Assembly (NCBI GenBank): GCA_009773805.1
Contig: WTXA01000004.1
Location: 295-64,294 of the forward strand
Length of the DNA: 64,000 nucleotides
Reading direction: 5' to 3'
Source: Fusobacteriota bacterium
Lineage (GTDB): Bacteria; Bacillota; TC1
Below, piece by piece: positions 22,862 through 31,018 of this stretch. The position numbers were made by a program, and so were the translations under genes. Within the stretch, counting starts at the first letter, position 1; each line of letters opens with the position of its first letter. A model generated the notes under the pieces. It ran no database searches. It had not been told where the DNA came from and worked only from the letters and a program-made list of their open reading frames with translations.

Positions 22862-23476
22862 TTATTTAATACCTTTTATCAACTTTAGAGTTTCCCCTAC
22901 TTTCCTTGTTAATGTTTCAAGATTCTTAATCCCATATTCATCAACTTCTTGTGTAAAAGGTACCGTGTCCTTACTCCAGATTGCAGCTCCACTATATACT
23001 CCCATGGAAGCACCAATTGGAATAATACCGTTTGTATGGAAGAAACCATGAAGTGAGCTAATAGTCATTTCCTGACCACCATTTCTTGCACCACCAACAG
23101 CTATTGCCATTCCCAACTTGTCATAAAAAACGTTAGGATTTTCTTTCAATGCATTGTAGTTTGGTCTAGTTCTACTTAATATAGCACTCATTTGAGGTGA
23201 CATCCCCATTTCATATATTGGAGAGCCCAATACTATAATATCACTAGCTAAAAACTCTTCATTGATATGCGAAATATCGTCTTGAAAAATTGTGCAGGTC
23301 TTAGTATTTTTCTTAACACAATCATTACAATGAATACACATGTTAATTTTCTTGCCTCTAACAGTAAAATATGTAGTTTCTACTCCATATTCCTTTTCAA
23401 GTATTTCTAGAGCTCGTCTAACTGCAAAGTCTGTAGCGTTTTTTCTAGTACTTCCGCAAATTCCTATTGCTTTCAT
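22862..23476 (-). CDS. NADPH-dependent FMN reductase-fold protein with iron-sulfur flavoprotein (Isf)-type cysteine cluster
   Basis: Flavodoxin-like N-terminus (MKAIGICGSTRKN). Compact motif C-x2-C-x2-C-x7-C (CIHCNDCVKKNTKTC), as described for Methanosarcina Isf. Starts 2 nt after the stop of the upstream gene. Confidence 0.7.
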   Translation of the reverse strand: MKAIGICGSTRKNATDFAVRRALEILEKEYGVETTYFTVRGKKINMCIHCNDCVKKNTKTCTIFQDDISHINEEFLASDIIVLGSPIYEMGMSPQMSAILSRTRPNYNALKENPNVFYDKLGMAIAVGGARNGGQEMTISSLHGFFHTNGIIPIGASMGVYSGAAIWSKDTVPFTQEVDEYGIKNLETLTRKVGETLKLIKGIK

Positions 23477-23478
23477 AT

Positions 23479-24459
23479 TTATACCTTCTTCCTTTTGTTC
23501 TTAAAGAAGCTACTGGAGATTATGTCTTCCCTAATATTTCCTTGTGAGAAAATATTACCTGTATTCATGTTGAAAATTTCAACTCTAGCAGGAGAATGAA
23601 TGTTTAGATCCATTTTGTAGTATGTTCTATCTGCTTCTAAATACAGCTCCCTAAATGATCTGCCATAGTCTTTTGAATATTCTGTTACCAATTTTGGTAA
23701 AATTCTGGTAATTTCTTCATCACTCTTACACTTAACCCAGTATTGTGATCTGCCACCATATAGTAGTGAATCGTTTATCTTGCCCATCGCTTCATCATCA
23801 TCTAAAGTAACTGGAGCTACCAAGGCAAAACCTCTTGCAAATTCCAAGGCATATTCTATGCTTTGGTCTTCTTGCATCATGATTTTATGTAGTGTTTGTT
23901 CCAAAATACGAGCAGCTACTTGAACTGCAGCTACTATTGAAGTATTGTTATGAACCAGCAAATATATATTATCAGGACTCATATTACATTCTTCTGCTAT
24001 TTTCATAGCAATTTCATCATCTGGAACTCTTTGTCCTTGTACTCCAAGTACAACTAATTCTGCTTCAGTATCCCTGTAACTATCAGGAATATCAAAACAA
24101 TAATCTTCCTTATTTCTAGCTACAGCCCTTCCAGGGCCTGAACCAATCATACCATCCCCAATAGGATAAGAGGCAATTTGGCTGTACCTCAGAGCCAAAA
24201 TCGGCTCTGAAGTCATAACCTCAACAGCTAAACAGCTGTGTCCATCTTCAAGTACATAGTCTCTATAGGTTACAGTTCCAAGATCAGCCATATTTATTTC
24301 AGTAAATAGTCTAGCTGCCTCAAAGCTGCCTTTAGCCTCAATTCCCATGTCGATTATATTTGCTCCGCATGGTAATTTATAGCTTTTACATGATAATGCT
24401 TCATAATTATCTAAAATGAATTGTAATTTTCTTTTTACGTTGTTGTTTAAACTAATCAT
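23479..24459 (-). CDS. Methenyltetrahydromethanopterin cyclohydrolase (Mch, PF02289)-like protein, paralog 2
   Basis: About 320 aa. Blocks recalled from archaeal Mch: GANIIDMGIEAKGSFEAARLF, GSGPGRA, IVAAVQVAARILEQTLHK, AMGKINDSLLYGG, and a C-terminal ...NIREDIISSSF. Collinear with the ORF at 27985-28947. Confidence 0.7.
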   Translation of the reverse strand: MISLNNNVKRKLQFILDNYEALSCKSYKLPCGANIIDMGIEAKGSFEAARLFTEINMADLGTVTYRDYVLEDGHSCLAVEVMTSEPILALRYSQIASYPIGDGMIGSGPGRAVARNKEDYCFDIPDSYRDTEAELVVLGVQGQRVPDDEIAMKIAEECNMSPDNIYLLVHNNTSIVAAVQVAARILEQTLHKIMMQEDQSIEYALEFARGFALVAPVTLDDDEAMGKINDSLLYGGRSQYWVKCKSDEEITRILPKLVTEYSKDYGRSFRELYLEADRTYYKMDLNIHSPARVEIFNMNTGNIFSQGNIREDIISSSFFKNKRKKV

Positions 24460-24466
24460 GTTTCAC

Positions 24467-29690: not shown

Positions 29691-29697
29691 TTTACAC

Positions 29698-30354
29698 CTA
29701 ACTTTCTAAAACTTTCTCCAATATTGTATAACAATGGAGTTCATGTTCCTCAATAATATCTCTCATTTTTTTCTTATCTTTTGTAATGATACATTCCAAT
29801 ATTTTAAAGTGATCCTCTGCAAGTAAATTAGCATCATCAGGACATTTACCTACTCCAGCTATATATAGTGACTTATGTAAAAAAGTGTGATCATTCAAGA
29901 TGTCTTTTACACTAGGCAAATTTACCAAGGCATATAACTCTTCGTGATACTTCTCTGCGAAATCGACATATTTTTTTCCATCACAACTATTTATAGCCTT
30001 TTGACTGCCATTTACATATTCTTCTAATAATTTTCTTTTACTGTCAGAAATCGCACTATTGTCAATAATATAGTCCATGGCAACAATTTCCAAGGCTCCA
30101 GATATTAGCAAACTCTCTTTAATCTCGCTAAGGGATAAATCCTTTATTCTGAAACCAACTCCAGGATACATTGTTATATAACCTTCAGATTCTAGAATTT
30201 TAATTGCACCACTAACCGGTGTTCTACTTACTCCAATTTCATTAGCTACATCGACAATAGTGTAAAGATGATTCTTCTTATAGAGTCCCTGTCCAATTTT
30301 GTCTTTTATCTCATTGTAAGCAAATTCAGTTTTTGTAATGAACTTTCTAACCAT
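29698..30354 (-). CDS. GntR-family transcriptional regulator (FadR/FCD-type C-domain)
   Basis: N-terminal wHTH (VDVANEIGVSRTPVSGAIKILESEGYI) plus an all-helical C-terminal domain. Embedded mid-operon. Confidence 0.8.
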   Translation of the reverse strand: MVRKFITKTEFAYNEIKDKIGQGLYKKNHLYTIVDVANEIGVSRTPVSGAIKILESEGYITMYPGVGFRIKDLSLSEIKESLLISGALEIVAMDYIIDNSAISDSKRKLLEEYVNGSQKAINSCDGKKYVDFAEKYHEELYALVNLPSVKDILNDHTFLHKSLYIAGVGKCPDDANLLAEDHFKILECIITKDKKKMRDIIEEHELHCYTILEKVLES

Positions 30355-30370
30355 TGTTCCTCATTTCCAC

Positions 30371-31018
30371 CTAGTCAACTAGGATCAGGTCGTTTATATT
30401 TATCGTCCCTAAGGACCTGATAATCGAAGTGAATAGTTTTTCTTCATCAGCAATATTTACGTTGGCTTCTATCGAAGTTGTAAAATCTTCGTGCTTTCTG
30501 CCTTTTCTATATTCTGGCTCCTTGCTTGGATGTAGAAGATATTCCGATATTTGATTTAAATTCCCTCTAATAATTAATGTGCAATAATAGGTAATGTAGT
30601 CTTTGGTACTATATATACTTGATCCTAGGATTTTTTTATCTCCTATACATAAATCTCCATTGCCTCGTATTTCCAAGGGAACATCCATGTAATTAAGTAT
30701 ACCTTCTTTTATTTTCTTAACAGATTCTTCAAGAAAGCCCATTAAATCTACTGCTCTATTATCTTTTTTAAAACTACAACTTAGAACAAGAACCCCAGGG
30801 AAAAGGAGGACTGCGCCTCCTCCGCCTTTTCTTCTTAATATAGGTACAGCATCTTGCGTGCACCTGGCTTCATTTACATCGCTTGAATGTGGTGTTACCC
30901 TTCCTAGAACAACAATTGTTCTATTTTGGTATTCCCCTTGGATATATATCTCGTTCTCATTCATTTTTTCCTTAATATATTCATCAAGTTTATATTCTGG
31001 AAATTTTTCTATTTTCAT
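30371..31018 (-). CDS. Lipoate-protein ligase/octanoyltransferase family protein (BPL_LplA_LipB catalytic domain only)
   Basis: RRKGGGGAVLL (compare the RRxSGGGAV motif of LplA) and GDKKILGSS with the candidate catalytic Lys. 215 aa, no LplA C-terminal domain. Confidence 0.65.
   Translation of the reverse strand: MKIEKFPEYKLDEYIKEKMNENEIYIQGEYQNRTIVVLGRVTPHSSDVNEARCTQDAVPILRRKGGGGAVLLFPGVLVLSCSFKKDNRAVDLMGFLEESVKKIKEGILNYMDVPLEIRGNGDLCIGDKKILGSSIYSTKDYITYYCTLIIRGNLNQISEYLLHPSKEPEYRKGRKHEDFTTSIEANVNIADEEKLFTSIIRSLGTININDLILVD

Follow-up and report, generated by a model that had tools for sequence, protein, structure and literature searches.

We examined positions 22862 to 31018 of a 64,000-nucleotide (nt) window, meaning the whole stretch of DNA analysed, from a genome of 1.68 Mb that is 98.5% complete. 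The interval encodes the E1alpha, E1beta and E2 subunits of a dehydrogenase complex dependent on thiamine diphosphate (ThDP) and lipoyl groups, together with an LplA-like protein of the lipoate ligase family, two Mch-family cyclohydrolases and an Isf-like flavoprotein. According to the open reading frame (ORF) list, every gene of the interval lies on the minus strand; from 31018 downwards, the order is LplA-like, GntR/FCD, short-chain dehydrogenase/reductase (SDR), Mch-1, E1alpha, E1beta, E2, Mch-2 and Isf-like FMN_red, and the gaps between genes measure 2 to 16 nt across the whole interval:

30371..31018, minus strand: LplA-like gene, 215 amino acids (aa), catalytic domain only (PF21948, 83 bits)
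29698..30354, minus strand: GntR/FCD-family transcription regulator (PF00392 and PF07729)
28959..29690, minus strand: SDR (PF00106, 185 bits)
27985..28947, minus strand: Mch-family cyclohydrolase paralogue 1 (Mch-1), 320 aa (PF02289, 353 bits; TIGR03120, 330 bits, cut-off 228.8)
26983..27969, minus strand: E1 alpha subunit, ThDP-binding (PF00676, 250 bits; TIGR03182, 312 bits, under the cut-off of 393.85)
26006..26983, minus strand: E1 beta subunit (PF02779, 129 bits, and PF02780, 128 bits; NF006667, 330 bits, above the cut-off of 321)
24467..25993, minus strand: E2 acyltransferase, 508 aa (two Biotin_lipoyl stretches, a peripheral-subunit-binding domain (PSBD) and 2-oxoacid_dh)
25865..25867, minus strand: codon of lipoyl-lysine K43 (AEIAIEKLSNEL), which in a gap-free alignment matches the lipoyl-lysine (TDK) of solved E2 structures' lipoyl domains
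25532..25534, minus strand: codon of lipoyl-lysine K154 (AEIAIEKLTNEL), in the second Biotin_lipoyl stretch
25169..25273, minus strand: PSBD of E2, aa 241-275 (PF02817, 26.4 bits against a cut-off of 23.7)
24473..25126, minus strand: catalytic domain of E2 with the motif DHRVING, aa 290-507 (PF00198, 225 bits)
23479..24459, minus strand: Mch-family cyclohydrolase paralogue 2 (Mch-2), 326 aa (PF02289, 262 bits; TIGR03120, 234 bits, cut-off 228.8)
22862..23476, minus strand: Isf-like FMN_red flavoprotein, 204 aa (PF03358, 80.3 bits, cut-off 24)
23294..23338, minus strand: codons of C47-x2-C50-x2-C53-x7-C61 (sequence and orthologue alignment)

These genes make up the distal two-thirds of a 13- or 14-gene minus-strand locus (22862-38247) that also holds a BMP-type ATP-binding cassette (ABC) transporter, a deaminase-type amidohydrolase and a RibD_C-like reductase, and is tightly packed from the amidohydrolase (37162) through the Isf-like gene (22862). 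A sequence-only reading of this DNA had proposed an E1/E2 complex without E3, served by a ligase of its own. Each gene that it described was described correctly; the two Mch genes, the SDR and the GntR regulator within the interval were left out, and taking them into account changes the reading of the locus.

In its domains the complex resembles the pyruvate dehydrogenase (PDH; PdhABCD) and acetoin dehydrogenase (AcoABCL) complexes of Firmicutes. Its E1 is a ThDP-dependent enzyme of alpha (PF00676) and beta (PF02779, PF02780) subunits, as expected from a 2-oxoacid or acetoin dehydrogenase complex, and its E2 combines a lipoyl-lysine at the hairpin tip, a PSBD (E3_binding match spanning aa 241-269) and an acyltransferase domain with the catalytic His, which DHRVING keeps, with N in place of the usual D. 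An NAD-linked dihydrolipoamide dehydrogenase (Lpd, the E3 component) is encoded in the genome. Unlike PDH and AcoABCL, the window operon lacks lpd and its genes lie between two Mch cyclohydrolases under a GntR regulator. The E2 clade also differs from these systems in having IEKL[STA]NEL rather than TDK[AV], DHRxxNG rather than DHRxxDG and none of the usual PSBD arginines, and E1alpha differs from that of PDH in scoring under the PDH equivalog cut-off.

An alternative is that E1 and E2 constitute the ordinary pyruvate or acetoin dehydrogenase of the organism and that their place among the Mch, SDR and Isf genes is incidental. The window E2 is the sole E2 in the genome (single PF00198 match), E1beta passes the PDH E1beta subfamily model, and the best solved relative of E1alpha is human PDH E1alpha (161 bits), all of which would suit a housekeeping role. 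The shortfall of E1alpha against the PDH equivalog (312 vs 394 bits) and the E2 clade's own signatures (IEKL.NEL and DHRxxNG) argue against it, as does the gene order SDR-Mch-E1alpha-E1beta-E2(-Mch) under a GntR regulator, which is kept across Bacillota families, Moorellaceae, C. difficile and a Chloroflexota-like variant. The cluster is moreover accessory, since no Mch or E2 was found in the sister genus (G008) and the cluster has decayed in TC1, the endosymbiont of Trimyema compressum (G007). We consider an ordinary dehydrogenase quite unlikely.

The homologous clusters were compared by mechanical ORF calling in the fetched loci and BLASTP to the window proteins at E<=1e-6, a procedure by which distant members may be missed. 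The GntR regulator heads the SDR-Mch-E1-E2 core in G009, G010, G012, G095, L119 and Moorellaceae, and in homologous clusters the SDR always adjoins Mch/E1; the SDR itself reached no equivalog cut-off in the NCBIfam profile search. The order in C. difficile is xanthine/uracil permease, Fer2, molybdenum (Mo)-hydroxylase, SDR, Mch, E1alpha, E1beta, E2, amidohydrolase, RibD_C and Lpd, and another homologous cluster (G218) reads E2, Lpd, LipA, Mch, Isf-like, E1alpha and E1beta. RibD_C is co-localised with the cluster in C. difficile, in G212 and in gut contigs. TC1 holds the cluster only as rearranged fragments (L035, C1:1190000-1209999) comprising RibD_C, amidohydrolase, BMP, permease, LplA-like, SDR and Mch; E1 and E2 are gone, GntR is intact, and Lpd and LipA are intact elsewhere. 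TC1, whose genome is reduced, is in effect a natural knockout of this pathway.

As the sequence-only reading had it, the two lipoyl domains of E2 read AEIAIEK43LSNEL and AEIAIEK154LTNEL. This context was regarded there as unusual, and here the comparison with relatives gave a different result. E2 homologues were gathered by catalytic-domain words only, which leaves the sample unbiased by the lipoyl motif. Among the best 120 E2 proteins, EI[AES]IEKL[STA]NEL was present in 122 of 150 lipoyl domains, and DHR[VI][VI]NG replaced DHRxxDG in 98 of the 120 clade members; sister E2 groups read TDKITNTV (C. difficile) or [ST]EKITNTV. On the evidence of these alignments, IEKL[ST]NEL is the lineage signature of a large E2 clade and not a reason for a special ligase. 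Members of the clade are found within SDR-Mch-E1-E2 clusters (L119) and, in a variant from Anaerolineaceae (L120), alongside an amidohydrolase and an SDR.

The PSBD of the window E2 aligns to the solved PSBDs 1W4I and 2EQ8_C (E about 1e-5) and carries Q, D and M where solved PSBDs have three basic residues. Loss of these residues was considered as a sign of an E3-less complex and rejected, as the E2 of the C. difficile type, whose cluster includes Lpd in cis, lacks them too. That sister clade combines a retained DHRVVDG with a PSBD devoid of the arginines.

No Lpd-type gene was found across 22862-38247 by the ORF list or the Pfam scan, in agreement with the sequence-only reading. The description of a complex without E3 applies to the operon only, since the genome profile search identified a bona fide Lpd on another contig (C1:134072-135442; 548.8 bits against a cut-off of 408.8) with a CLNRGC disulfide; an lpd elsewhere in the genome was a possibility which that reading had itself raised. 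Dihydrolipoamide dehydrogenase is available genome-wide and not in the operon. Its gene stands alone beside an MtnA-like gene (L003, C1:132572-136942). GcvH and GcvP are both encoded in the genome, so Lpd also serves as the L-protein of glycine cleavage. The genes of the lipoyl system are scattered: gcvH is solitary, next to a phosphofructokinase gene and near dnaA (L012, G000:C2:453512-456871), and gcvP lies at C1:10793.

Lpd scored above the cut-off in the cluster-bearing genomes G009, G010, G095 and G105, lying about 8 kb upstream of the cluster in G010, and is encoded in cis in the homologous clusters of C. difficile (L121) and G218 (L143). All five family relatives tested had Lpd above the cut-off and an intact LipA, including those without a working cluster (G007, G008). 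An Lpd dedicated to this E2 only was considered and rejected, given the persistence of Lpd and LipA in the E2-less G007 and G008 and the presence of GcvP and GcvH in this genome. The complex is conventional in requiring an E3, and we infer that the Lpd of contig C1 is the partner of this E2: the dihydrolipoyl arms would be reoxidised by this housekeeping enzyme, shared with the glycine cleavage system.

The LplA-family gene was correctly recognised by the sequence-only reading as encoding a 215-aa protein of the catalytic domain only: PF21948 is the only domain, and both RRKGGGGAV and GDKKILGSS are present. The proteins of its family, 200-250 aa long, share the conserved motifs VVLGR, RRxGGGGAV, GDLCIGDKKILGSS and HPSKEPxYRxGRxHxDFVT. 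K129 aligns with the lysine of GDRKVSGSA in E. coli LplA (K133) and, as expected of an LplA catalytic domain, is invariant in the broad family alignment (A1) along with R63, G66 and G67. The score against the LplA equivalog TIGR00545 was 72.6 bits, far under its cut-off of 280. The AF2 model of the protein had a pLDDT of 93.5, and its top Foldseek matches were the catalytic subunit of T. acidophilum LplA (TMq 0.71-0.75); LipB (2QHS) ranked 31st and the LipM/L-like 2P5I and 2P0L 33rd and 34th, behind the LplAs. No NCBIfam or Pfam match specific to LipB, LipM or LipL was obtained for the protein.

The closest known system is the bipartite LplA-LplB of T. acidophilum (2ART, 2ARS, 3R07), with which, as with LplA in general, the window protein shares the catalytic fold, the RRxGGGG loop and the active-site lysine. 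Unlike that system, it has 215 aa, a C-terminal HPSKEPxYRxGRxHxDFVT motif of its own and no accessory domain (PF10437), whether in the protein itself or elsewhere in the 98.5%-complete genome. A single catalytic domain without accessory domain is also the arrangement of LipB, LipM and LipL, from which the subfamily differs in having no invariant catalytic Cys and in being nearer LplA in sequence and fold. Across the wider family (A1) there is no invariant Cys; C53 and C124 are conserved throughout in the close relatives (A2) only. With neither an accessory domain nor a family-invariant Cys, an ATP-dependent ligase and a transferase are both possible, and catalytic LplA domains that lost LplB have been argued to have become octanoyltransferases several times (PMC10332631). 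A LipL-type amidotransferase in a Bacillus-style relay was rejected: the housekeeping enzyme is LipB and not LipM, there is no invariant Cys, and fold and profiles are nearer LplA.

At least 444 relatives of this protein are present in species-representative genomes of many phyla, and collinear E1alpha-E1beta-E2-Lpd-LplA-like operons occur in Bacteroidales, Myxococcota, Fibrobacteria, Anaerolineae and Omnitrophota. Of the 55 LplA-like loci that had 5 kb or more of upstream flank, 17 carried an E2 within 10 kb, for which the chance expectation is, by a rough estimate, about 1-2%. The subfamily was present in 11 of the 401 genomes of the phylum sample, 10 of these carrying Mch, and all intact copies (10/10) were in genomes with E2, compared with a background of 114/401; these genomes represent only about six independent lineages, related genomes not being independent samples. 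TC1 was the only subfamily genome without E2, and its gene is truncated after residue ~149 with loss of the C-terminal motif. LipB (G212) or LipA (G218) is found in cis in the place equivalent to that of the LplA-like gene. These results support a functional tie between the LplA-like gene and E2. The earlier proposal of a ligase specific for the unusual E2 stands with respect to this tie (17/55 loci, 10/10 intact copies, decay in TC1) and falls with respect to the EK context, since neighbouring E2s of the subfamily carry TDK, SKK, TGK, TEK, SEK or IEK contexts and G010 (single contig, 99% complete) combines an E2 of three IEKLSN domains with a standard two-domain LplA of 327-340 aa as its only PF21948 gene.

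The protein could alternatively serve something other than E2, either by pairing with the BMP-type ABC transporter (for instance in lipoate or octanoate salvage), by modifying GcvH or as a non-catalytic relic. Its gene starts 2 nt past the last permease gene, a spacing resembled by several Moduliflexus-like and other genomes (L037, L059, L065, L083, L085) in which the LplA-like gene is the immediate neighbour of a BMP-type ABC operon and E2 is lacking within 10 kb; in G009, G013, G095 and G135 it is found apart from the E2 cluster, and the lack of an accessory domain and of a family-wide invariant Cys fits such a role as well. BMP-type ABC modules with Isf and Mch nonetheless occur without an LplA-like gene, and the collinear operons in many phyla and the confinement of intact copies of the phylum sample to E2-bearing genomes tell for E2 as the target. 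Decay of the gene together with the cluster in TC1, where the GcvH-related Lpd and LipA persist, is difficult to reconcile with modification of GcvH, and the invariant lysine and RRxGGGG loop in a confidently modelled protein speak against a relic. We judge a role away from E2 to be unlikely; most likely, the LplA-like protein would attach lipoate or octanoate to the E2 lipoyl domains upon induction of the operon.

The last gene of the operon, as the sequence-only reading noted, encodes an FMN_red protein (PF03358) with a CxxCxxCx7C motif formed by C47, C50, C53 and C61, all of which are invariant in eight orthologues (alignment A3). Isf of Methanosarcina thermophila contains FMN together with a 4Fe-4S cluster bound by a compact CX2CX2CX4-7C motif and is proposed to act in electron transfer under oxidative stress. 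By this motif definition, the window protein has both the flavodoxin-like FMN_red fold and the compact four-Cys arrangement of the Isf type, and its orthologues keep the N-terminal CX2CX2CX7C; unlike M. thermophila Isf, it lies in a catabolic context (BMP-type ABC, deaminase, RibD_C, Mch) and not among stress genes. No solved Isf sequence matched at E<=0.01 in the PDB sequence search, whose sole match was the flavone ene-reductase FLR (7D38, 28.6 bits). FLR is an FMN ene-reductase that reduces a heterocyclic C=C bond (PMC7862272). The neighbours of Isf-like genes in 40 metagenome loci of at least 8 kb were amidohydrolase in 16, BMP-type ABC in 15, Mch in 11, RibD_C in 7 and E1/E2 in only 5, and orthologues of 38-44% identity are found with Mch and BMP-type ABC in surroundings without E1/E2 (L145, L151, L154, L156). 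Since these neighbours are mostly Mch, deaminase and BMP-type ABC genes, the Isf-like protein belongs to a ring-processing module, in which it presumably acts as a pathway reductase for a heterocycle and not as an E3 surrogate. A low-potential donor probably feeds it.

The opposite view, that of the sequence-only reading, is that the complex is truly E3-less, with the Isf-like Fe-S flavoprotein reoxidising the dihydrolipoyl arm or otherwise disposing of electrons and the operon ligase serving the EK site. The missing lpd in the operon, the position of the Isf-like gene as the last one, 2 nt after Mch-2, and its association with E1/E2 in the window genus, G009 and two Moorellaceae are compatible with it, as are the loss of the PSBD basic residues and the lack of an operator found in common with lpd. 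Lpd is, however, encoded by this genome as well as by all cluster-bearing genomes checked, and is in cis in C. difficile and G218; since G218 additionally contains a distant Isf-like gene (28% identity, with a Cys motif that diverges), the two are not alternatives. Neither consistent co-occurrence with E2 nor complementarity with Lpd was seen for the Isf-like protein, whose orthologues are mostly without an E1/E2 neighbour (5 of the 40 loci having one) and which lacks disulfide-reductase features. The ligase subfamily stands beside TDK, SKK and TGK E2s, and an IEK-type E2 occurs without it in G010. An E3-less complex is thus highly improbable, and replacement of E3 by the Isf-like protein is not supported.

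Upstream of the LplA-like gene, the locus continues with the following genes:

31021..35658, minus strand: BMP-type ABC transporter, directly upstream, 2 nt from the LplA-like start, comprising the binding protein (34609-35658), the ATPase (33024-34547) and two permeases (31928-33034 and 31021-31935)
35765..37162, minus strand: deaminase-type amidohydrolase, first gene of the long operon (PF01979, 207 bits)
37288..38247, minus strand: RibD_C-like reductase of the dihydrofolate reductase (DHFR) fold (PF01872, 44 bits)

The best NCBIfam match of the amidohydrolase was 8-oxoguanine deaminase (297 bits, under the cut-off of 532), with PDB matches to 3HPA and 7WW2. Both Mch paralogues exceed the equivalog cut-off of methenyl-tetrahydromethanopterin (H4MPT) cyclohydrolase (TIGR03120; 330 and 234 bits vs 228.8), the enzyme of 1QLM, 4GVQ-4GVS and 4FIO, and Mch-1 scored 267 bits to M. 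kandleri Mch (1QLM) over its full length. In contrast to archaeal Mch, these genes are found in an anaerobic Firmicute, where a deaminase, an SDR and ThDP/lipoyl enzymes share their catabolic operon, a context that makes it likely that the window Mch proteins act on a different amidine-type ring substrate. Annotation pipelines will label such genes methenyl-H4MPT cyclohydrolase in Firmicutes, including C. difficile (L121, OX246690), despite the catabolic context.

The genes of the locus fall into two modules that recur both separately and jointly across genomes. The upper module, made up of the BMP-type ABC importer, the deaminase-type amidohydrolase, RibD_C, the Isf-like protein and Mch, would carry out uptake, deamination, reduction and ring opening. 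The lower module (GntR, SDR, Mch, E1alpha/beta and E2) would, to judge from the protein families, convert a carbonyl fragment (a 2-oxo acid or an alpha-hydroxyketone/diketone) to acyl-CoA by ThDP and lipoyl chemistry. The arrangement Perm-Perm-BMP-ABC-RibD_C-amidohydrolase-Isf-Mch recurs in human-gut contigs L167, L168, L170, L172 and L179 without SDR or E1/E2, from which it follows that the upper half of the locus exists alone in gut bacteria. The nearness of Mch-1 to archaeal Mch, the 8-oxoguanine-deaminase-like deaminase, the nucleobase permease and Mo-hydroxylase of the C. difficile cluster and the phosphotransacetylase of the Moorellaceae cluster point to purine or pterin catabolism to acyl-CoA, and it is from these that we infer the substrate and the E1 reaction. 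Most likely, the compound that the locus imports and degrades is a purine- or pterin-type amino-N-heterocycle.

Together, these results lead us to favour, with somewhat more than even confidence, a heterocycle locus whose E3 is supplied in trans, whose LplA-like protein acts for E2 and whose Isf-like protein works in the ring-processing module. Several observations weigh against this reading. The three basic residues missing from the PSBD, missing also from the C. difficile-type E2 with Lpd in cis, mean that E3 docking may be atypical across the clade. No operator common to the operon and lpd, lipB or lipA was found, a weak negative in that the 18-bp palindrome in question is unique in the genome. 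LipB and LipA are already encoded in the genome, side by side, which leaves the need for a further lipoylation enzyme unexplained, and the LplA-like genes beside BMP-type ABC operons without a nearby E2 belong on the same side. As to the substrate, no description of the Mch/E1/E2 cluster was found in the literature search, and the paper on the reductive uric-acid pathway (PMC12507026) concerns a different C. difficile cluster.

With the E3-less claim gone, the finding as first framed is largely ordinary, and the interest of the locus lies elsewhere. The Mch-SDR-E1/E2 genes with Isf, deaminase and RibD_C mark an uncharacterised heterocycle pathway that extends to C. difficile and gut metagenomes. 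The catalytic-only LplA subfamily recurs with E2 operons in many phyla and no characterisation of it was found in the literature; its mechanism, ligase without LplB or transferase without a catalytic Cys, bears on the evolution of lipoyl-attachment enzymes. In the E2 clade, lipoyl site, catalytic motif and PSBD have changed in a coordinated way, which amounts to a natural experiment on which of the textbook residues can be dispensed with. A bolder proposal, which in our estimate falls a little short of an even chance, is that of an undescribed anaerobic pathway, present also in C. difficile and human-gut contigs, in which archaeal-type Mch homologues would open an imported pterin- or purine-like ring and a lineage-specific ThDP/lipoyl complex, marked by the IEK lipoyl motif, DHRxxNG and a PSBD poor in arginines, would make acyl-CoA from a carbonyl fragment of the ring, serviced by a new and widespread class of stand-alone LplA catalytic domain that lipoylates or octanoylates E2 with neither accessory domain nor catalytic Cys.

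Some further features of the locus and its relatives were observed:

37179-37196: perfect 18-bp palindrome CATCCTGCATGCAGGATG, between a promoter-like site and the amidohydrolase start
31103-31131, minus strand: promoter-like ATGACA-17-TATAAT (11/12 matches; consensus match only), within the 3'-terminal part of the last permease gene and ~85 nt ahead of where the LplA-like gene starts
22679..22712, minus strand: terminator-like hairpin of 15 pairs with a T-run, after the Isf-like gene (consensus match only)

The palindrome, of which the genome has no second copy at up to 3 mismatches, is a candidate operator for the GntR regulator of the operon. The promoter-like site at 31103-31131 may, as far as its sequence goes, be an internal promoter for the part from LplA-like to Isf, and the RibD_C-like gene possibly has a promoter of its own. 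In Moorellaceae bacterium AZ2 (L036/L071), E2 is divided between a stand-alone lipoyl protein of 79 aa and a catalytic one of 231 aa; this cluster has a single Mch gene, and its final genes encode an isochorismatase and a phosphotransacetylase. Further Mch paralogues of 35-37% identity occur with a deaminase-type amidohydrolase in L032 (G009:C4) and L033 (G010:C1:2058000-2077999), together with pairs of ABC-type ATPase genes that by eye appear to be like those of energy-coupling factor (ECF) transporters, and L032 also holds a second E1alpha/E1beta pair with no recognisable E2.

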